Shown: positions 5,906-23,712, numbered from the stretch's first letter. The stretch is 64,000 bases of DNA from a virus (IMGVR_UViG_3300002307_000041:21096-85095), one strand, 5' to 3'. The notes: a model not told the origin generated them from the letters alone. Translations and numbers: made by a program.

Positions 5906-6302
5906 GTGTTTGATCTTAGGCGATAGTATCGCTGTTGGTACTCATCAATATAAGACTGACTGTGTGAAACTTGCTACAAGTGGATTTAGCTCTCTACAAT
6001 GGAATAGACGCTACAATAACACTATCTTATTCTCACAGCAGTTCAATTTTGTTGTAATTAGCTTAGGATCAAACGACTACGCAGCTATCAATACACGCAA
6101 AGAACTAGAAGAACTTAGGATAAAGATTGATAGCAAGCGTGTCTATTGGATATTGCCTGCTATTAAACCTGAGATACAACAAGTGGTTAGAGAGATAGCA
6201 TCTTTCCACGGTGATCGTATTATTAAGATACCTATTCTAGGAAGAGATGGGATACACCCAACTACTACTGGATACAAAAAAATAGCAGAGGAAGTAAAAT
6301 GA
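5898..6302 (+). CDS. SGNH/GDSL hydrolase-like protein
   Basis: [10 protein letters not shown] block I, SLGSND block III, DGIHP block V. Confidence 0.75.
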
Positions 6303-6901
6303 ATTTAGTACCAATGGTAATCGAAAAAGAATCTGGCGGAGAACGTAGCTATGATATCTTTAGTCGCTTGCTTAAAGACAGGATTATAATGTTAGAAGGA
6401 CCCATCGAAGACCATACAAGTGGACTTATTTGTTCACAGCTATTGTTCTTAGAAAGTCAGAATCCGGCAAAGGATATCTATCTCTATATTAATAGTCCAG
6501 GTGGGGTTATTACTGCTGGTATGGCTATCTATGATACTATGCAGTTTATCAAACCAGATGTTTGCACTATCGTAATGGGGCAGGCGTGTAGCATGGGGTC
6601 ATTTTTAGCGCAAGCAGGTGCAACAGGAAAGCGTTGGTTGCTGCCTAACAGCAGACATATGATCCATCAACCTAGCGGTGGAGCTAGAGGTATGGCTAGT
6701 GATATCGAGATTAGCTATAAAGAAATCCAGTTTTGGAAAAATAGGTTGACAGAATTGTATGTTAAGCATAATACTGTAGGTAAGACTTATGATCACTTTG
6801 TAGCAGATATGGATCGAGATAAGTTTATGAGTGCAAACGAAGCAGTTGCTTATGGTCTAGCAGATAAGGTGATCGAGCGTCGAGACGATCTAGGAGAATA
6901 A
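6299..6901 (+). CDS. clpP: ATP-dependent Clp protease proteolytic subunit
   Basis: [41 protein letters not shown] (Ser), MIHQP (His), DRDKFMSA. Confidence 0.97.
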
Positions 6902-15652: not shown

Positions 15653-16831
15653 ATGTTAAGTCTTCAAGTACAAGCACCTAGCTGTTATGCTGATATCGTC
15701 AATAGGCAATTCGATAAGTCTGAAAGTCAGTATATCGACCTACAGGCCAGACTAAATTCTGCTTTGCAGGAACCTTGGAAGAAAACTATCCTAAAAAATT
15801 CTATAAAGAATTTTAGGAATAACAATCCCCATATCAAAAAGTGGAACGATATCACTCTCTGTAAAACACTTACTACTACACTTTCAAAAATTGATATTGA
15901 TATTACCCTACAGAGACTTTTAGATCTAGGACACGCTTGTAATATTTTGTCTAGCTTTAAACAAATCGTAGTTATGCCAATCTGTGTATATGAAGATCCT
16001 GCTAATCCAGGAAAATATATCTGTTGGGATGGTCAACATACAGCTATTGTTTTGACTATTATAGCTTCTATGATTTTGGCTGAAGATTTAGATAAGTGTG
16101 AAGTTCCTATTGTAGTATATTCTAGCAACTTAAAGTCCGATATGCGTCAATGCTTTATCGAACTTAACGGCGAAGGTAAGAAGCCGCTAGATCATATCGA
16201 TCAAGTACATCAAAAACTATTCGGAGTACGTACAGATGGTAGCAAAAACGCCGAATGGCAGCTTATTGATAAGAAATACCGTATGTTAGAAGATTATAAG
16301 ATTTTCTTAACAAATGAGAAATTTGGAGATACCCATTCTCCTGGTGCGCAGGCTAGGTTAGATGAGTTTTTAGATAAAAGCTATCCTCCAGTTATTACTG
16401 AATATTTTGCAAAGTATTTCTTTAATATTTGTCATAGCAGTAGACCAGTTCAACCTAAAGAAAGCTGGATGATGTATGAATTCTTTGATTGGTGTCGTGT
16501 ATCTAAGATCGAAGTTACTGATGATTATATCTACGACATTGCCCAAAGTTTGAAAAAGGCTTTTAATGGTGATTTTGATTCGAGTAAACTTTACACAAAG
16601 GCAAAGTTTAGTTATCAAGAATGGTATCGGGCCAATAAACCTTATCAAGATGGCACACTTTGGGGTATACAATATCCTGAATTTAAAATTGGTCTTACAT
16701 TCTTAATGGCACAAATTGCTAAGAACTTTAAAGGACCGATGCCATCATATAAGCCATTATGGAATGTTCCCGACGAAGATCTATTTTCAAATGATTCAGA
16801 TAGTATCAGTATGAAAAAGGAATATGTTTAA
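15653..16831 (+). CDS. ParB/Srx-like (DGQH motif) domain protein
   Basis: IDITLQR...ICVY...YICWDGQHT...FIELN; SD AGGAGA; upstream TTGACA promoter at 15591. Confidence 0.65.
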   Translation: MLSLQVQAPSCYADIVNRQFDKSESQYIDLQARLNSALQEPWKKTILKNSIKNFRNNNPHIKKWNDITLCKTLTTTLSKIDIDITLQRLLDLGHACNILSSFKQIVVMPICVYEDPANPGKYICWDGQHTAIVLTIIASMILAEDLDKCEVPIVVYSSNLKSDMRQCFIELNGEGKKPLDHIDQVHQKLFGVRTDGSKNAEWQLIDKKYRMLEDYKIFLTNEKFGDTHSPGAQARLDEFLDKSYPPVITEYFAKYFFNICHSSRPVQPKESWMMYEFFDWCRVSKIEVTDDYIYDIAQSLKKAFNGDFDSSKLYTKAKFSYQEWYRANKPYQDGTLWGIQYPEFKIGLTFLMAQIAKNFKGPMPSYKPLWNVPDEDLFSNDSDSISMKKEYV

Positions 16832-17307
16832 TGTTAAATGAGGTACTTTCGAAAAATAATCTTAAACTTAAGAAATTATCTCATTTACGAAAACAAATAG
16901 AAGAAGGACATAAATGTACCTTAAAATTTTGTGACGAGGCGTTATCAGAATATGAAGGTCCTAGATCTAATTATCTCTGTATTGATCACCAATTAATGCA
17001 GAGAGAATATGGTGGATTAGCTCGTTACGATCGCCCATGGACTTTTTCTCGAGAATGGAACTGTGCTTGGTGCGGATATAATCCAAAAGAAGATCCTTGG
17101 TTTAAAAATCCACCAATTCCTTTTGATAACGAAGCACATATGATACGTGCTCAACGCGGAATGCTTGTAGGTGATCATAACAAGCATCGTAGAGTTGATG
17201 GTGGAAGTGATGGTAAAGATAATGTTCAAACTTTATGCCAAAATTGTAATTCTAAAAAAACAATTATGACACACGACTATAGAAGATCAAAAATAGAATG
17301 TGTCTAG
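16831..17307 (+). CDS. HNH endonuclease-like protein, translationally coupled to the DGQH gene
   Basis: CAWC...GDH...GGSDGKDNVQTLCQNCNSKK; TAATG overlap. Confidence 0.8.
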   Translation: MLNEVLSKNNLKLKKLSHLRKQIEEGHKCTLKFCDEALSEYEGPRSNYLCIDHQLMQREYGGLARYDRPWTFSREWNCAWCGYNPKEDPWFKNPPIPFDNEAHMIRAQRGMLVGDHNKHRRVDGGSDGKDNVQTLCQNCNSKKTIMTHDYRRSKIECV

Positions 17308-17410: not shown

Positions 17411-17441
17411 TTGACGTAGGTCATACTTTGCTGTATAAATA
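17411..17441 (+). promoter_or_regulatory. Sigma70 promoter with embedded TATAAATA late box
   Basis: TTGACG-17 nt-TATAAA(TA), preceded by a hairpin at 17353-17383. Confidence 0.65.
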
Positions 17442-17466
17442 TAAAGTAACTAAAAAGGAGAAAGTT

Positions 17467-18042
17467 ATGAAGAACATACTAGCAAATCTGTTGGCATCGG
17501 TTGCAATGCTTGGAACCGCTGTAGCAGCAGATCTACCTAGCAAGGCCGCTCCGGCAGCTCCGGCTCCGGCAGTGTCAAATGCATTTGGTCTTGAAGGGTT
17601 TTATGTCGGTGGTAACGTAGGTGGTAATTATGCCAAGTACGATCACATCAACGTAAATTCAATGCCATATACTATTGGCGCAGTGGGCGGTTATGAATGG
17701 AATCGTTACTTCCGCACTGAAGCTACCTTTGATTATACATCGAAGAACGCACCAACTACCAAGGACACAGGCGAGACTGTTTTCGCTAATGCTGTAATGC
17801 AGTATCCAGTTGGTTTTGGCTTTACACCATATGCACTTGCTGGCGTTGGAGAGGGATTCAACGCCTGGGGTAAGGTAAAGAGTGGCGATGCTCGTACACT
17901 ATATAATATCGGTGGAGGCGTCCGTTATTCACTTAGCAAGAACTTTGAACTAGATGGACGTTATCGTTACATCAACGCTGTTAGCGGTACTAAGTTCGAG
18001 AACAACAGTGTTGTTACAATAGGTGCAAACTACAAGTTCTGA
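17467..18042 (+). CDS. Outer-membrane beta-barrel protein (Omp25/RopB-like porin family)
   Basis: Signal peptide, ADLPSKAAPAAPAP leader, GFYVGGNVG, alternating beta-strands, C-terminal GANYKF; SD AAGGAG. Confidence 0.85.
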   Translation: MKNILANLLASVAMLGTAVAADLPSKAAPAAPAPAVSNAFGLEGFYVGGNVGGNYAKYDHINVNSMPYTIGAVGGYEWNRYFRTEATFDYTSKNAPTTKDTGETVFANAVMQYPVGFGFTPYALAGVGEGFNAWGKVKSGDARTLYNIGGGVRYSLSKNFELDGRYRYINAVSGTKFENNSVVTIGANYKF

Positions 18043-18065
18043 TCTCAATAGGATAGAACTAACAG

Positions 18066-18094
18066 AGATAACGGGCTAGTCCCGTTATCTTTTT
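18066..18094 (+). terminator. Rho-independent terminator
   Basis: AGATAACGGG/CCCGTTATCT stem plus T-tract. Confidence 0.85.
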
Positions 18095-18230
18095 CGTTGA
18101 CAACAACGAAAATACATAGTAATATATAATTACTAAAACAAGATGGGTGGCTAGCTCAAAGGTCGAGCGTTGCGACGAGAAGCCGATACTCTCAACATCC
18201 GTTACTTTAACAAAAGAAAAGGAAAGACAC

Positions 18231-18887
18231 ATGAAGAAGATCATTATCAGCGCAGTATCATTACTAGCTCTAACCGCAGCCGCAGGTGCTACGGATTTAC
18301 CTTCTAAGAAGAAGACTCCAGCTGCTCCTGCTCCAGTAGCAGCACCAGTTGCTGCTCCGGCAGAAAGCAATGACAGTTTGTCAATTAGTTATGGACAGGA
18401 TTTTAGTCCAAATAGCTATAATTCAAAGACAGACGATGCTTACACTATTGCTTACACACATAAGCTAGGAGGTGGGTTTACTGTAGGTGGCGTTATGCAG
18501 CCAGTACAGTATTCATCAGACAATACTATGAAGATGACTGGTGAAGGCCAGTTTGGTTATTCATTGCCATCAATGGCAGGTCTTACATTAGGTGGTAAGG
18601 TCGGTTTAGGTGAGAAGTTCCAGTCAAGTGGTAACTTTGGTTATTATGCGCTCTATGGCACTGCTGATTATAAGGTAGCAGATAAGCTAACTTGGAATGC
18701 TGTACAGTATCGTTATCGTAATGCATTTGATACTGCTAATAACTTCGAAAGTCACCAGGTTGGTACTGGTGTTACATATGCTCTAACAGATACCTATGCT
18801 ATCAATGCAAAGGTTTTCCGTAACTATGATAATAACTTCAGCGCAACAGGCGACGGCGCTGCAATTGGCGTAACTGCTAAGTTCTAA
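18231..18887 (+). CDS. Second outer-membrane beta-barrel protein
   Basis: Signal peptide, TDLPSKKKTPAAPAP leader, beta-strand pattern, C-terminal GVTAKF; SD AAGGA. Confidence 0.8.
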   Translation: MKKIIISAVSLLALTAAAGATDLPSKKKTPAAPAPVAAPVAAPAESNDSLSISYGQDFSPNSYNSKTDDAYTIAYTHKLGGGFTVGGVMQPVQYSSDNTMKMTGEGQFGYSLPSMAGLTLGGKVGLGEKFQSSGNFGYYALYGTADYKVADKLTWNAVQYRYRNAFDTANNFESHQVGTGVTYALTDTYAINAKVFRNYDNNFSATGDGAAIGVTAKF

Positions 18888-18893
18888 TAATTT

Positions 18894-18934
18894 AAAAGGT
18901 GGAGAGATAATTAATTTTTTTTCCACCTTTTTCT
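18894..18934 (+). terminator. Terminator-like inverted repeat
   Basis: AAAAGGTGGA/TCCACCTTTT plus T-tract. Confidence 0.65.
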
Positions 18935-18976
18935 TTGACTAATTACTAACAGTGTAGTATTATTAGTAAATAAGAG

Positions 18977-19051
18977 GGGCGGTTGGCACAGTGGTAGCGC
19001 ATCTCGTTTACACCGAGAGGGTCGGGGGTTCGAAACCCTCACCGCCCACCA
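18977..19051 (+). tRNA. trnV: tRNA-Val(TAC)
   Basis: GGGCGGT/ACCGCCC; TCTCG-TTTACAC-CGAGA; CCA. Confidence 0.94.
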
Positions 19052-19073
19052 TATTTTTTGCAAGGGATGAAAA

Positions 19074-19307
19074 ATGAAGAAGACTATTTTACTAATGACT
19101 GCACTAGCATTTGCTACTGTTATGTCTCTATCTACAGTTACTACAGCATCTGCTGCAGAAGCTACTCGTAAAGTTTGCCATATCAAGAAGGGCAAGGAAA
19201 TTTGTAAGGAACTTAAGGTACGTCCAAAAAGCGAACCTTTAAAGAAACCGGATGTCAAAAAGCCGGCGGTCAAAAAGACTGTTAAGAAGAAGAAAATTAG
19301 TAATTAA
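19074..19307 (+). CDS. Small secreted Lys-rich protein
   Basis: Signal peptide ending ASA-A; Cys pair; basic tail. Confidence 0.7.
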   Translation: MKKTILLMTALAFATVMSLSTVTTASAAEATRKVCHIKKGKEICKELKVRPKSEPLKKPDVKKPAVKKTVKKKKISN

Positions 19308-19309
19308 CT

Positions 19310-19340
19310 AAAATGGGGGCATTTAGCCCCCATTTTTTTT
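19310..19340. terminator. Bidirectional terminator
   Basis: AAAATGGGGGC/GCCCCCATTTT between convergent genes. Confidence 0.85.
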
Positions 19341-19345
19341 GACTA

Positions 19346-21094
19346 TTAAAAGTTTATTTTTAATCCAATATTTCCACCAACGCCAGTTAGATTAGAACTT
19401 TTATCTACACCTACTGATGCATTTAGAAACACATCATCAAAAATTTCTGTATTAGCAGTAGCTCTTATACTACCAACTGTTTTAAAATCTTTGCTTTGTG
19501 TAACACGACCTTCAACACCAAAATTCTTATCAAGATCAAATCTTAATCCAGCATATGGATTAACTGATGTAGTTGATTTAGTGCTAGGAGCAGTTGATAA
19601 CAAGAAGCTGCCTGTTTCAACTAAGTCGCTGACAGAACTATTAACTATAGTGGCACCAATTAGTGGTCTAATACCCCAATAAGTATCTGGAGTATAAACT
19701 GTTAAATCACCATAGATAGTTCTTTGATTAAACTTAGCACTATTAGCCAAAGCAAATAATGGAATAACTGTAGATCCAGTATTTTGGCTATATCCAACAC
19801 CTACTGCACCTTTGATCCACGCATCTATATCTCTAATAAGAGTATATGCAGTTCCATCATAGTTAGTGCTTTCAACATTGCTATAGTTTAACCCGTTGCT
19901 TTTACTACCAGAATAATTAACCGCAACACCAAACGTGTTGTTATCAACTGTCCATTGATATCCACCAGCAATACCGCCGCTTGCCATGCTACCTATTGTT
20001 TTATAATAGCTGGCGCTTGGACTAACCCATGCTCCGTCTTTCTTATTAACTGGATCGATAAGGAAAGGACTAAATGAGCGCAATTTAACAGCATCTTCAA
20101 ATCCGGTCTTATTGAAGCTTACACTGTTAGAATTAGAACTTCCAAGTCTTTGTTGTGGATCTAATAGAGTATCGCGGTTGTACGGATTTCCGTTAGTTGT
20201 TACACTAGTCCCGTCGCTATATTGCTGTGTGCTAGTTGGTATTACTGCAACTCTATTAGTTACAGTTCTGCGATCATAATTATTGATCGTTCTAGTAATA
20301 ACGCCATTATTACCACTATCAGTCCTAGCATCAGCTGATACTGTTGCCCAAGCGATCCAACTACCATAAATTACTGTCGGAGTACCTAATATAGTGCCGC
20401 TGGTTGGGCTACCTACAGCAGTTACAGCAGGAGCACCGGCAGCAGCACCTTGAGCAGGAGTAGCAAGTGTAGTAAATCCTACCGAGCCTGGGATTGTGCA
20501 TTGATCTGGAGCAACACTTACGTTAGCACAAGCACCACTGTATGTTCCAAGTTGTATAGAACCAGTATTGGCCACATTGTTACCGCTTACATCAAATGTG
20601 ATAGTGTATGTCGTTCCGGCAGTTAGGTTAACACCTTGATAGATACCATCAAAGGATCCAACAGCACCGTCATACCAAACTCCGCCGTGAGGAGCGGCAC
20701 CATTCTGCCAAGCACCGGCAGCAGCAGGATATGTTCCGTTCTGATACCATACACCCCAACTGTTTGGTGCTTGTATTTGGCTTGGACCGTTGTTAGTTGT
20801 TACACTAAAACTTCCGCCTGTATCAAATCCACCATTAGTTAATAGGTTCGTAGATGAACCGCTAGCAGTTACTCTTACGTTATCGAAGGTCCAAAATGCC
20901 GGATCTTGTCGGAAGGCGAATCCAACAAAGTTGGCCCCAGTTGTAGTCGGTGTAAATATGTAACTAAATGTCTGCCAAGTGTTAGCTGTATTGTTTGCCA
21001 ATACGCCAACTGAACCTGCAGGTAATTGTTGCCCATTTGAAAGTGGGATATTTGTAAAAAATAGAGCAAGCGCCACGGCTATGATCTTTTTCAT
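19346..21094 (-). CDS. Autotransporter-like outer-membrane protein (signal peptide, beta-sandwich passenger, C-terminal beta-barrel)
   Basis: MKKIIAVAL leader after SD AAGGAGA; NLLTNGGFDTG carbohydrate-binding-like motif; barrel-like C-terminus ending GLKINF. Confidence 0.7.
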   Translation of the reverse strand: MKKIIAVALALFFTNIPLSNGQQLPAGSVGVLANNTANTWQTFSYIFTPTTTGANFVGFAFRQDPAFWTFDNVRVTASGSSTNLLTNGGFDTGGSFSVTTNNGPSQIQAPNSWGVWYQNGTYPAAAGAWQNGAAPHGGVWYDGAVGSFDGIYQGVNLTAGTTYTITFDVSGNNVANTGSIQLGTYSGACANVSVAPDQCTIPGSVGFTTLATPAQGAAAGAPAVTAVGSPTSGTILGTPTVIYGSWIAWATVSADARTDSGNNGVITRTINNYDRRTVTNRVAVIPTSTQQYSDGTSVTTNGNPYNRDTLLDPQQRLGSSNSNSVSFNKTGFEDAVKLRSFSPFLIDPVNKKDGAWVSPSASYYKTIGSMASGGIAGGYQWTVDNNTFGVAVNYSGSKSNGLNYSNVESTNYDGTAYTLIRDIDAWIKGAVGVGYSQNTGSTVIPLFALANSAKFNQRTIYGDLTVYTPDTYWGIRPLIGATIVNSSVSDLVETGSFLLSTAPSTKSTTSVNPYAGLRFDLDKNFGVEGRVTQSKDFKTVGSIRATANTEIFDDVFLNASVGVDKSSNLTGVGGNIGLKINF

Positions 21095-21165
21095 TGTATG
21101 GTCTCCTTTATGTACCATTATTATTTAGGCGAAGCTACCTAATGGAAAAACACCAATATAAAAAC

Positions 21166-21214: not shown

Positions 21215-22465
21215 GTGATGGCTAAGGCAGCAACCAAAAAGAAAGATACCGGTAAGATCAATCTAACACCGAGAGTTAAAAAGGCCACTCGAACACGCTC
21301 ACCACTGTTCCTCGATGAGAAGTATACCGGAACTGAACCAACTTGGGAAGGTTGGGAAAAGTGGAGCACTGAGAAATACTGGAAGGAAAAACATCGAGGC
21401 CTTTACTATTACAATTATTTTAACACTTATAAGGATCTAGCTCCTAATTTGTATAAGTGGATGGCAGTAGTAGGTTACACCAAAGAAGATATCCGTTGCA
21501 TTAAAGAAATTCCAGATAGTCATATGACCATTACTGCTGCTGCATTGGCAACGATGTTCTTGAGAGGTATGCCTGAGAACCGAGAAGATATGGAACACCA
21601 AGACTCAGGAAAATGGATACGCAACGAGCTTGCTGGACATATTATTAAAGGACAAAAGTTAGTAGATCAAAAAACAGCAACCGAAAAAGGATCTGTTAAC
21701 ATCCATCAACCCAGCATCCAAGAGCGCATCCGAGAAGCTACATATACCCATTTGGAAGCTATTGAAGATTGGTTAGAAGGATTCATTAAGGATCCCGCTA
21801 GTTTTGATCCAAAGGGGTTTAATGTGCTTAACCACTTTAAAAGCCAAGAAGTCAACCAAGCACACGCACGTTTAATCCGCGAGCAATACGCCTACAACAA
21901 GCAAGACTACGACGAGCTACTAAGCAGCACTAAAGACAAGACAGACGCTTACACGCAGCTTGTAGACGGTTATAGCTGCTATACAAAAGCACAGCTGAAG
22001 AATATGCAAGCAGCACTAACAGAAATCATCGCAGCTTGTGATATGATCCTCCAAAAAGCTAAAGTTAGCCGCAAGGTCCGGGCAAAGAAGGCGCCCAGCA
22101 AGGAGAAATTGGTTGCTAAATTGAAGTTTAAGGAAAGCGACGATCGCTACAAATTGGTTAGTATCAAACCAGAAGAGGCACTACAATCTATGGAACTTTG
22201 GGTGTTCAATACCAAGACCCGAAAGTTAGGAGTGTATGTGGCTAGTGATACTGCTGCATTGAGCATCAAGGGCACAACTATTATCAATTACAATGAAAAC
22301 AAAAGTGTTGCTAGGACTGTACGCAAACCTGAGGAATTCTTCCGTGATGTGAAGAGTTTGCCAAAGACCAAGATGCGTAAACTCTACGAAAGTATTAATG
22401 GCGTAGAAGTTAAAATGAATGGAAGGATCAACGCGGATATAGTGCTGTTGAAAACCTTTAGTTAA
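21215..22465 (+). CDS. Conserved large-phage hypothetical protein
   Basis: 416-aa ORF with SD AAGGAG; basic C-terminal domain (NTKTRKLGVY...KGTTI...RKPEE...NGRIN). Confidence 0.8.
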   Translation: MMAKAATKKKDTGKINLTPRVKKATRTRSPLFLDEKYTGTEPTWEGWEKWSTEKYWKEKHRGLYYYNYFNTYKDLAPNLYKWMAVVGYTKEDIRCIKEIPDSHMTITAAALATMFLRGMPENREDMEHQDSGKWIRNELAGHIIKGQKLVDQKTATEKGSVNIHQPSIQERIREATYTHLEAIEDWLEGFIKDPASFDPKGFNVLNHFKSQEVNQAHARLIREQYAYNKQDYDELLSSTKDKTDAYTQLVDGYSCYTKAQLKNMQAALTEIIAACDMILQKAKVSRKVRAKKAPSKEKLVAKLKFKESDDRYKLVSIKPEEALQSMELWVFNTKTRKLGVYVASDTAALSIKGTTIINYNENKSVARTVRKPEEFFRDVKSLPKTKMRKLYESINGVEVKMNGRINADIVLLKTFS

Positions 22466-22515: not shown

Positions 22516-23712
22516 ATGGCATCAGGGTTCCAGAACAACCAAACCAATTCCCTTTTATATAAGGATAATCCGAATAGGTTTCTTTCTGTAGTAGATTTTG
22601 ATCTACTAGCAGGACATAGCTACCAAATCGATGGCATAGATGTGCTTTCGTCTACAGAGTTAGGTGGCTCGATTACAACTTCAAAGCTTACCAAGGTAGG
22701 TGTATTAAAGGGCCTGCAGGTAAGCGGTAATCTAAATGTAGCCGATCATATCTTTTATAATGACTCAACTGAACGTATGGGCATTGGAACAGATGCACCA
22801 AATGCAGCACTTAGCGTGGCCGAGAATGGTGTAGAAATAGTAATTGGAAGTTTGAAAGACGGTGTTGGTCATATAGGAACACATACTAGCAATGATCTAG
22901 CTATTATTACAGATAATGTTGTACGCATGACAGTGTCTAGGACTGGCAAGATCGTCATAGGACACCCAGTAGCACAGAATGCAGATGTAGAAATACAGGG
23001 TAGATTATTTGTAAGACAGCTAGTTGTTGATCAAACTGATAGTAGCAATAGTCCACTTGAGTTTAAGGCACCAGAAGGCGGCAGCAATTATGGTAAGGGC
23101 ATACTTTTTACCGGAAATAATACCGCTGCAAAACAATTCATACTATCGGCAAATCCAGATAGTTTCTTTAGTACTGAACACATAAACCTAGATAATACTA
23201 AAAGCTATCTAATAGCTGGTTTTCCTGTACTATCTGTAAACAGCTTAGGGGGTAGTGTCACCCAGAGTAATCTTACACGTTTAGGAAAATTAGAAAATCT
23301 AAATGTAGGCGGTCCAAGCAGCTTTGAAAGCGATATTACTATTAGTGATTCTGTAGTAATAAATGCTAATGATTTAGCTATAGGTAATAGTTTACAAAAT
23401 ATTAACATTGGAACTTCATCTGTATCCTTTGGTACAAAAGATGCACCAACTACACAAATAATTGTTAATGGAACATTTGGGATAGGTGTACAAACAGTTA
23501 GCAAAGATGTAAATTTTGAAACTAGTGGTAATATAAGATTTGGCGATAGGTTATTTGCCGTAGGTGCTACACACCCTGCTGCAGGAGCATATAAAAAAGG
23601 TGATATAGTTTGGAATTCAAATCCAGTAGAAACAGGGTATGTTGGTTGGGTTTGTATAACTGATGGTACACCCGGTATATGGAGAGGGTTTGGTCAGATT
23701 GGAATCAGCTGA
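22516..23712 (+). CDS. Virion structural or tail-fibre-like protein
   Basis: Repeated LGGSITTSKLTKVG / LGGSVTQSNLTRLG; C-terminal GDIVWNSNP...GWVC..GTPG.W. Confidence 0.7.
   Translation: MASGFQNNQTNSLLYKDNPNRFLSVVDFDLLAGHSYQIDGIDVLSSTELGGSITTSKLTKVGVLKGLQVSGNLNVADHIFYNDSTERMGIGTDAPNAALSVAENGVEIVIGSLKDGVGHIGTHTSNDLAIITDNVVRMTVSRTGKIVIGHPVAQNADVEIQGRLFVRQLVVDQTDSSNSPLEFKAPEGGSNYGKGILFTGNNTAAKQFILSANPDSFFSTEHINLDNTKSYLIAGFPVLSVNSLGGSVTQSNLTRLGKLENLNVGGPSSFESDITISDSVVINANDLAIGNSLQNINIGTSSVSFGTKDAPTTQIIVNGTFGIGVQTVSKDVNFETSGNIRFGDRLFAVGATHPAAGAYKKGDIVWNSNPVETGYVGWVCITDGTPGIWRGFGQIGIS

Follow-up and report, generated by a model that had tools for sequence, protein, structure and literature searches.

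A swappable islet of outer-membrane protein genes in a T4-type jumbo phage and its possible role in remodelling the host surface

What could a phage gain by furnishing the envelope of its host with proteins of its own? This question is raised by a locus in IMGVR_UViG_3300002307_000041, an 85-kb record of an uncultured freshwater virus in the IMG/VR database, of which bases 21096-85095 were analyzed (64,000 nucleotides, referred to here as the window; positions are those of the window unless another record or locus is named). Between a gene for an HNH endonuclease and a conserved phage gene, dn416, the window contains, in 5' to 3' order, genes for two small outer-membrane proteins (OMPs; OMP1 and OMP2), a tRNA-Val gene, a gene for a secreted peptide (pep77) and a convergent gene for an autotransporter. 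The four proteins carry predicted Sec signal peptides, and three of them end in a β-signal of the type read by the β-barrel assembly machinery (BAM) and are predicted to fold as barrels of 8, 10 and 12 strands; signal peptides, β-signals and folds together argue strongly for localization of these barrels in the outer membrane of the host. The genes form an accessory, moron-like and swappable envelope islet, and the explanation that best accounts for the whole, with a probability of roughly 0.6, is that this islet remodels the surface of the infected cell.

The four reading frames listed in an earlier note on this DNA (two barrels, a 77-aa Lys-rich peptide and a convergent 582-aa protein) are all present, and its account of the locus stands for these protein genes and fails only in having missed the tRNA gene among them. 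Because OMP1, OMP2 and the autotransporter have 100, 116 and 307 homologues, respectively, at E<=0.001, the threshold for homologue counts, the islet genes are far beyond chance. The gene contexts of the metagenome homologues were drawn from IMG/VR loci, which are given L numbers below.

Three barrel proteins with outer-membrane signals

OMP1 (17467-18042, + strand) is a protein of 191 aa whose Sec signal peptide ends in AVA and is followed by ADLPSK and a run of Pro and Ala, and whose C-terminus is NYKF. It matches PF13505 (OMP_b-brl) over residues 31-192 with 63.7 bits, above the gathering cut-off of 28.7, and OmpA_membrane with 30 bits. Searched against the Protein Data Bank (PDB), the OMP1 family profile matches the OmpA transmembrane domain, NspA and Opa, and the protein is therefore predicted to be an 8-strand barrel like the transmembrane part of OmpA, without a periplasmic domain. 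The family alignment contains four weakly conserved segments between conserved ones, a pattern expected of surface loops, and these are putative loops.

OMP2 (18231-18887, + strand; 218 aa) also has a Sec signal peptide, which ends in AGA and precedes TDLPSKK and a Pro/Ala run, and its C-terminus is AKF. Its AlphaFold2 model is a 10-strand barrel with a predicted local distance difference test score (pLDDT) of 87.3, for which a Foldseek comparison with known structures returned generic small-barrel matches alone, at template modelling (TM) scores <0.5, including a weak similarity to KdgM/NanC-type channels. OMP2 itself has no match in Pfam, PF13505 included; about 20 of its relatives, 50-57% identical, carry PF13505 in precomputed tables. 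The features that the earlier note had attributed to the two barrels, namely a signal peptide, an ADLPSK or TDLPSK leader with Pro and Ala, a terminal Phe, a promoter and a terminator, and for OMP1 a Shine-Dalgarno sequence, were recovered for each of them.

In both small-barrel families, no stretch beyond the barrel core is better conserved than the (A/T)DLPSK leader. Of 87 OMP1-type and 112 OMP2-type proteins, 80 and 100, respectively, carry the motif A[ATSG]D[LMIVA]P, compared with 0 of 120 relatives of the autotransporter, and an aromatic C-terminal residue, as in BAM-type β-signals, ends all 87 OMP1-type and all 112 OMP2-type proteins and 108 of the 120 autotransporter members. The predicted mature N-terminus of OMP1 is Ala-Asp, as in peptidoglycan-linked OMPs of Hyphomicrobiales, a group reportedly treated by Godessart et al. 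in 2021. In OMPs of Brucella and Agrobacterium, L,D-transpeptidases covalently link a conserved N-terminal alanyl-aspartyl motif to peptidoglycan (PMC10787603, PMC12729407). Like those proteins (Brucella Omp25 and its Agrobacterium counterparts), OMP1 is a barrel of the PF13505 type, and both phage barrels have Asp as the second residue of the predicted mature N-terminus and continue into a Pro-rich linker; they differ in being only ~25-30% identical to them and shorter (191-218 aa versus 208-297 aa), and in that OMP2 would begin with Thr-Asp, cleavage being predicted before the T of A-T-D, a sequence found in 100 of 112 members of its family. By analogy, the leader is probably a wall-tether signal, with the linkage of the phage barrels itself a prediction.

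An ADLPx(R/K) plus Pro-rich leader also heads weak cellular matches from a Beijerinckiaceae metagenome-assembled genome and from Alsobacter sp. R-9, both Hyphomicrobiales, and is found on an OMP of a 6.1-Mb Pseudomonadota genome. The presence of the same leader on the Beijerinckiaceae and Alsobacter OMPs agrees with the earlier description of it as Rhizobiales-type.

The third barrel belongs to the convergent gene on the - strand (19346-21094), which encodes a protein of 582 aa; a relative's protein of the same length is 99% identical. Its start is the ATG at 21094, preceded at a distance of 8 nt by AAGGAG (21103-21108, - strand), so the length given earlier stands and the end coordinate of 21118, an upstream in-frame ATG, does not. 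The N-terminus has MKK, a hydrophobic core and SNG before QQLP (AYA before Q in relatives), and the predicted Sec signal peptide (21035-21094, - strand) is of the kind found on type Va autotransporters. An AlphaFold2 model built from 46 sequences, with a mean pLDDT of 79.8 and residue numbers that are +1 relative to the 582-aa protein, divides what follows into three parts, all on the - strand. The head (20435-21034; model residues 22-221) is modelled as a β-sandwich with a conserved Cys pair, the stalk (20108-20434; residues 222-330) is Thr-rich and modelled as long β-hairpins, and the translocator (19349-20107; residues 331-583) consists of a linker helix and a 12-strand barrel that ends in KINF. 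More finely, the model has a signal peptide to residue ~21, the β-sandwich at residues ~30-190 (pLDDT 55-84), a low-confidence linker at 208-224, the long β-hairpins at 227-329, a helix at 332-342 and twelve strands at 355-581 (pLDDT mostly >90), with values mostly of 85-97 across the translocator.

The best Foldseek matches in the PDB are all autotransporter β-domains (NalP, EstA, AaaA, AIDA-I, BrkA, Hbp and EspP), and VIA-align gave Z values of 25.9 to NalP (root-mean-square deviation 2.5 A over 253 residues), 25.0 to EstA and 24.2 to AIDA-I, compared with <=17 for other 12-strand barrels. At the level of the model, the 582-aa protein is thereby confirmed as a type Va autotransporter, as the earlier note had called it; structure prediction, which that note had proposed as a check, thus returned a 10-strand barrel for OMP2 and a 12-strand one for this protein. 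Like NalP, EstA, AIDA-I and Hbp, to which it aligns with Z values of 23-26 over ~250 residues, it has a signal peptide, a passenger, an in-barrel helix, 12 strands and a terminal Phe. Unlike them, it has no PF03797 match, presents a β-sandwich on a β-hairpin stalk instead of a β-helix, is encoded by a phage-carried gene and has a head that is more conserved than its barrel. PF03797 was not detected in it, and its C-terminal 353 residues match no Pfam family even at E<=10; three relatives that share its head contain PF03797, and a 54%-identical uncultured-phage protein is named ‘Autotransporter beta-domain containing protein’ in BFVD/UniProt.

The conservation of the head stands out when the parts of the protein are compared across relatives. 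In most of them the head is 75-92% identical to that of the window protein, the stalk 22-31% and the barrel 33-53%, and among relatives with 75-92% identical heads barrel identity spans 33-77%. The reverse exchange is seen in three relatives, which keep the barrel (68-76%) and carry a different head (25-28%). Family matches to the head are weak (DUF642 at 14.1 bits, E 0.04, cut-off 27; choice_anch_C/TIGR04362 at 19.4 bits, E 0.001, cut-off 120), and its language-model features in a protein atlas score 0.93 to DUF642/GalBD-like clusters. Searching with a head profile recovered only 483 clusters among 1.84 billion representatives, the strong matches lying mostly at the N-terminus of proteins of 450-1100 aa and the weak ones including PEP-CTERM proteins of ~240 aa, 3 of 10 of which, when scanned, had a weak DUF642 match. 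In other proteins this head is fused to curlin or to cadherin/VCBS repeats. It occurs once per genome, with no paralogue in the phage sequence searched; the profile has no sequence relative in the PDB, and the structure search with the whole model was filled by barrel matches. The family matches and atlas features point to a putative lectin-like β-sandwich similar to DUF642 and choice-of-anchor C domains.

Longer autotransporter variants of 1089-1114 aa occupy the same slot in other loci (L019:2682-5990; L075:2036-5380, - strand; L025:5989-9258), and in L075 the N-terminal region is unrelated. Some head-bearing proteins end without a barrel (L057, L059, L060, L062).

A swappable slot in phage genomes and the likely host

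The islet lies in the same place before dn416 in four related contigs, with its flanks kept and its content changed. Upstream of dn416, L074 has OMP1, OMP2 and the peptide; L006 has OMP1, a 138-aa gene and a convergent autotransporter; L019 has OMP1 and a 1102-aa autotransporter with the same head; and L075 has OMP2, a 245-aa gene, the peptide and a 1114-aa autotransporter with another head. OMP2 is therefore absent in L006 and L019, and OMP1 in L075. At least 25 distant loci have OMP2 at 1.6-4.6 kb on the upstream side of a dn416 homologue (such as that at L077:12576-13736), and pairs of an autotransporter and an ADLPSK barrel recur in other phage lineages (L008, L015, L024, L029, L054, L146). 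A gp23 capsid gene is found in each of five large related records, of which four count as complete (338, 168, 173 and 519 kb), three of these with direct terminal repeats.

The islet genes are truly phage-borne, and the site that precedes dn416 acts as a hot spot at which genes for secreted envelope proteins collect. A chimeric host contig, which the earlier note had named as a possible refutation, was excluded, as the islet stands between the same phage genes in four independent contigs and its families occur in complete genomes with direct terminal repeats and gp23. None of the four islet proteins has a match in PHROGs or PADLOC, and their NCBIfam matches are all below curated cut-offs. OMP2 and the autotransporter have 74 and 61 viral loci, respectively, in IMG/VR, and neither has a tblastn match among 50,697 GenBank phage records. 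As for dn416 itself, it is a widely conserved T4-type gene found in Sinorhizobium phages phiM12 and phiN3, Caulobacter phage Cr30, PA5oct and DLP_6, and in distantly related phages, too, it borders the envelope islet on its downstream side.

The 85-kb record is 23% complete according to CheckV, and contigs carrying proteins of close relatives measure 354-357 kb, so this T4-type phage is a jumbo phage of ~355 kb, in agreement with the jumbo size supposed earlier. T4-type kinship alone suggests a lytic lifestyle, and the phage is presumably virulent and no prophage. Its window has an even guanine-plus-cytosine (GC) content of 35-43% and 24 tRNA genes, and also encodes a gp44-type clamp loader, a ClpB-like ATPase, baseplate and tail-fibre-like proteins and enzymes of nucleotide metabolism.

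The host is very probably an alphaproteobacterium, because the phage's own genome contains a full-length alpha_tmRNA (Rfam RF01849; 132 bits; L150:11082-11443), ~10 kb before the window. This transfer-messenger RNA is present in all five phage records tested that carry these families (this one and four complete relatives) at 97-132 bits, and among 14 control genomes it was found in Caulobacter only. Among capsid proteins, that of Sinorhizobium phage Phosso comes nearest to the capsid of the 338-kb relative; across the relatives, the nearest capsids are those of Phosso and the PA5oct group, or of DLP_6, Pelagibacter phage Mosig and phiN3. The leader motif further suggests Hyphomicrobiales as the host order. 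In the 173-kb phage, the alpha_tmRNA (G005:C1:5630-5979) lies directly upstream of an ADLPSK barrel gene at 6100-6636 (L147).

It was also asked how close the small barrels are to cellular proteins. The nearest named cellular proteins to OMP1 are only ~25-30% identical, at E ~1e-5, and a close cellular homologue is absent from the matches and the genome collections searched. A profile search of genome contigs gave three weak matches, none of them alphaproteobacterial, and in a sample of 401 Pseudomonadota genomes the best OMP1 match was no better than E 1e-16, with no candidate host or donor. Because a close cellular homologue of OMP1 was not found, the small barrels look like old phage lineages rather than fresh host copies. 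The suggestion that the islet encodes host-like outer-membrane proteins holds to the extent that the leader is shared with OMPs of Hyphomicrobiales; it does not hold if recent copies of known host porins are meant, given identities of ~25-30%.

Cultured phages carry related proteins. Phosso (XYS97228.1) and Ochrobactrum phage vB_OspM_OC (phiOC_p344) each encode a protein that shares ~30% identity with OMP1 and whose gene, as in the window, neighbours a tRNA gene or one for a homing endonuclease. Like OMP1 these are small barrels, with a signal peptide that ends AAD-A; they differ in having no LPSK/Pro-Ala leader, and no autotransporter or OMP2 is annotated within the flanks viewed.

Peptide, transcription signals and neighbouring genes

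The fourth secreted protein, pep77 (19074-19307, + strand), has 77 aa and a signal peptide ending in ASA. Its predicted mature part of 50 aa contains 19 Lys or Arg residues and 2 Cys, has an isoelectric point of 10.3 and ends in a Lys-rich tail, which bears out the secreted Lys-rich protein read earlier. L074 and L075 have an orthologue (76 and 59 aa, respectively) at the equivalent position, and no family match was found in any library scanned. Upstream of it, between OMP2 and pep77, is the tRNA-Val(TAC) gene (18977-19051, + strand; 61.5 bits to the Rfam tRNA family). A promoter-like TTGACT-17-TATTAT site on the + strand, within 18935-19051 and 5' of tRNA-Val, is probably shared by these two genes. 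In L010, L013, L015 and L098, homologues of the autotransporter or OMP2 begin directly after a tRNA gene; envelope genes of this kind, those of the islet included, often lie within phage tRNA arrays or at their margins.

Taken as a whole, the promoter scan returned counts at chance level (9 found versus 10 expected), so the promoters proposed for the islet rest on position and conservation. That of OMP1 (17411-17439, + strand) reads as a σ70-like TTGACG and TATAAA spaced by 17 nt, and the gene is preceded by an AAGGAG Shine-Dalgarno sequence. L003, L004 and L005 retain its -35 and -10 boxes; they do not retain the TATAAATA box that overlaps the promoter at 17434-17441. A ‘late promoter’ at TATAAATA finds no support, with 6 copies in the window versus 10.9 expected and the OMP1 copy not conserved. 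The OMP1 terminator (18066-18095, + strand), a hairpin with a T-run, is kept in L074 with a compensated stem change and a changed stem/loop.

OMP2 has a σ70-like promoter, TTGACA-17-TAATAT (18097-18125, + strand), followed by a 5' leader of ~100 nt (18126-18230, + strand) that contains a conserved block; L074 keeps the promoter and part of the leader, including 28 nt that are identical. The folding of this leader is not unusual (z = -0.04), and, like ompA-type leaders, it might serve in regulation or in stabilizing the mRNA. A hairpin and T-run at 18894-18934 (+ strand) read as the OMP2 terminator. The convergent pep77 and autotransporter genes share a strong hairpin of 11 pairs between them (19310-19336); an Rfam sraA match there was rejected as below threshold. 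Upstream of the autotransporter, a CTAAATAATA box (21119-21128, - strand) is identical in L006 and L019 and is possibly a late-type or weak -10 element, and this upstream region has no good -35 box.

On the left flank, the 158-aa HNH endonuclease gene (16831-17307) is overlapped by one base by an open reading frame of 392 aa without family match, the two together spanning 15653-17307, just before the islet. The right flank is dn416 (21215-22465; phrog_11903), which has no assigned function. Relatives have other small Cys-rich or endonuclease-like genes within the islet (L006:7860-8276), and in vB_OspM_OC a seg-type endonuclease adjoins the OMP gene there too. Homing endonucleases may act as movers of envelope cassettes.

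Purpose of the islet and its setting among phage outer-membrane proteins

If the islet remodels the host surface, the host Sec and BAM machineries would insert the phage barrels into the host outer membrane during infection, host L,D-transpeptidases would staple those with an (A/T)DLPSK leader to peptidoglycan as fixed, wall-tethered parts of the envelope, and the autotransporter would expose its conserved head at the surface of the infected cell. The set of receptors presented by the cell and by its debris would thereby change, so that superinfecting phage could be excluded and progeny spared futile adsorption. Among possible purposes this change of receptors is tentatively placed first, at somewhat less than even odds, with tethering or stabilization of the envelope second. 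Masking of receptors is favoured because islet content is variable, heads are swapped, the putative loops vary, the transcription units are self-contained and there is a precedent in phage lambda Lom; in addition, the genes are present or absent among close relatives in an arms-race-like manner.

Phage outer-membrane proteins have been studied mostly as prophage morons, such as Lom and Bor, and Llp of T5 is another phage surface-exclusion protein. Lom of lambda is reported to block the phage's own receptor by masking LamB (as reported in 10.64898/2026.10.24.761521). Like OMP1 and OMP2, it is a phage-encoded small barrel routed through Sec and BAM from its own transcription unit. Unlike Lom, the two barrels belong to a T4-type, presumably virulent phage and have a wall-tether-like N-terminal extension that is absent in Lom, and neither matches the Ail/Lom family (PF06316) in Pfam at E<=0.01. 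A more ambitious version, in which phages of Alphaproteobacteria have evolved barrel lineages of their own that exploit the host's L,D-transpeptidases, and the islet, more than a collection of stray morons, builds a coordinated coat in which these barrels work with the head of a phage-specific autotransporter that binds and masks the phage's own glycan receptor on cells and debris, is speculative and rather improbable.

Several observations weigh against remodelling for exclusion. The synteny of OMP2 and dn416 over a wide phage clade describes a more conserved gene than a sporadic exclusion moron, the strong conservation of the head is unlike typical arms-race surfaces, and the PADLOC defence library yielded no match. 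OMP2 would begin with Thr-Asp instead of Ala-Asp, and a search of the five phage records for a YkuD (L,D-transpeptidase) gene found none, so that the host would have to supply the tethering enzyme. Late expression of the autotransporter, for which the evidence from its upstream box is weak, may fit masking of debris or adhesion better than early exclusion.

The main rival explanation is that the phage supplies wall-tethered barrels to hold the outer membrane attached and intact through a long infection after shut-off of host gene expression, any effect on receptors being incidental. The high conservation of (A/T)D-LPSK and its match to the peptidoglycan-link motif of Hyphomicrobiales, the synteny of OMP2 in many phages, and 8- and 10-strand barrels without obvious channel or enzymatic features are all consistent with such maintenance of the envelope; the absence of one or other barrel from L006, L019 and L075 is not, an autotransporter with a lectin-like head is left unexplained, and bacterial OMPs are long-lived, so that their replacement seems unnecessary. 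This explanation is possible but doubtful. The head is instead the centre of a proposal in which it binds glycans on neighbouring cells, particles or algae and brings infected cells near dense hosts, the small barrels being unrelated morons. Classical type Va passengers are often adhesins, and the resemblance of the head to carbohydrate-binding or surface-display domains (DUF642, choice-of-anchor C and PEP-CTERM relatives), together with its conservation on anchors as different as autotransporter barrels, curlin and cadherin/VCBS repeats, would suit adhesion. Set against this are family matches that all fall below curated cut-offs, the lack of a PDB sequence relative, the moderate confidence of the model and the recurrence of the autotransporter beside ADLPSK barrels in the six lineages named above, which hints at a joint role, so adhesion alone appears unlikely.

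Uptake of nutrients, with the barrels as porins or channels that feed the infected cell in the manner of auxiliary metabolic genes, is the least likely of the proposed purposes and has very little in its favour. A preprint ties phage OMPs of 10 to 22 strands to transport genes in aquatic phages, and the OMP2 model has its weak similarity to KdgM/NanC-type channels; against this, 8-strand barrels form no solute channels (10.64898/2026.10.24.761521), OMP2 has 10 modelled strands and only generic matches at TM <0.5, and transport genes were not found beside the islet. A role in the virion or in lysis could be read into the tail-fibre-like gene 1.4 kb 3' of the islet (22516-23712) and the possible late-type CTAAATAATA box before the autotransporter. 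Small cationic peptides of the pep77 type are also known among lysis proteins that disrupt the outer membrane. Signal peptides and β-signals point to the BAM route, however, and no PHROG structural or lysis family was matched; likewise, a host fragment mis-assembled into a viral contig would have to be reconciled with the same flanking phage genes in four contigs, with complete genomes bearing terminal repeats and with even GC content, so that readings of this kind can be given hardly any weight.

The islet belongs to a kind that is already known. Yuan and Chen described 1,603 β-barrel OMPs of 6 to 22 strands in 1,303 huge phages (>200 kb; up to 4 per genome), 678 of them from freshwater, and proposed receptor masking or superinfection exclusion (preprint of 24 Oct 2026; bioRxiv 10.64898/2026.10.24.761521), so huge-phage OMPs as a general idea are no longer new. 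With 8, 10 and 12 predicted strands on a genome >200 kb, the islet barrels fit this class; they are unlike its usual members, which are closest to host homologues (10.64898/2026.10.24.761521), in that a close cellular homologue was not found. The preprint does not contain the word ‘autotransporter’, nor an Ala-Asp-type tether motif, a conserved lectin-like head or the synteny of the islet. In the literature searched, phage autotransporters as such, the conserved head and a tether-type leader on phage barrels were not found, nor was the phrase ‘phage-encoded autotransporter’, and a study of freshwater phages (PMC6802176) and the paper describing vB_OspM_OC do not discuss these genes.

Phage OMPs are thus common among huge phages according to the preprint, and the roles given to them there are still hypothetical. 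For this class of proteins, the islet provides a compact and unusually clear case in which three barrel classes and a secreted peptide are combined in one swappable locus. It leads to two hypotheses that can be tested at the bench, namely that an (A/T)D start makes phage barrels substrates for the peptidoglycan stapling of the host, and that a phage-specific autotransporter family displays a strongly conserved lectin-like head. Since the cultured phages Phosso and vB_OspM_OC have homologous small barrels, the stapling hypothesis would be testable in laboratory strains.

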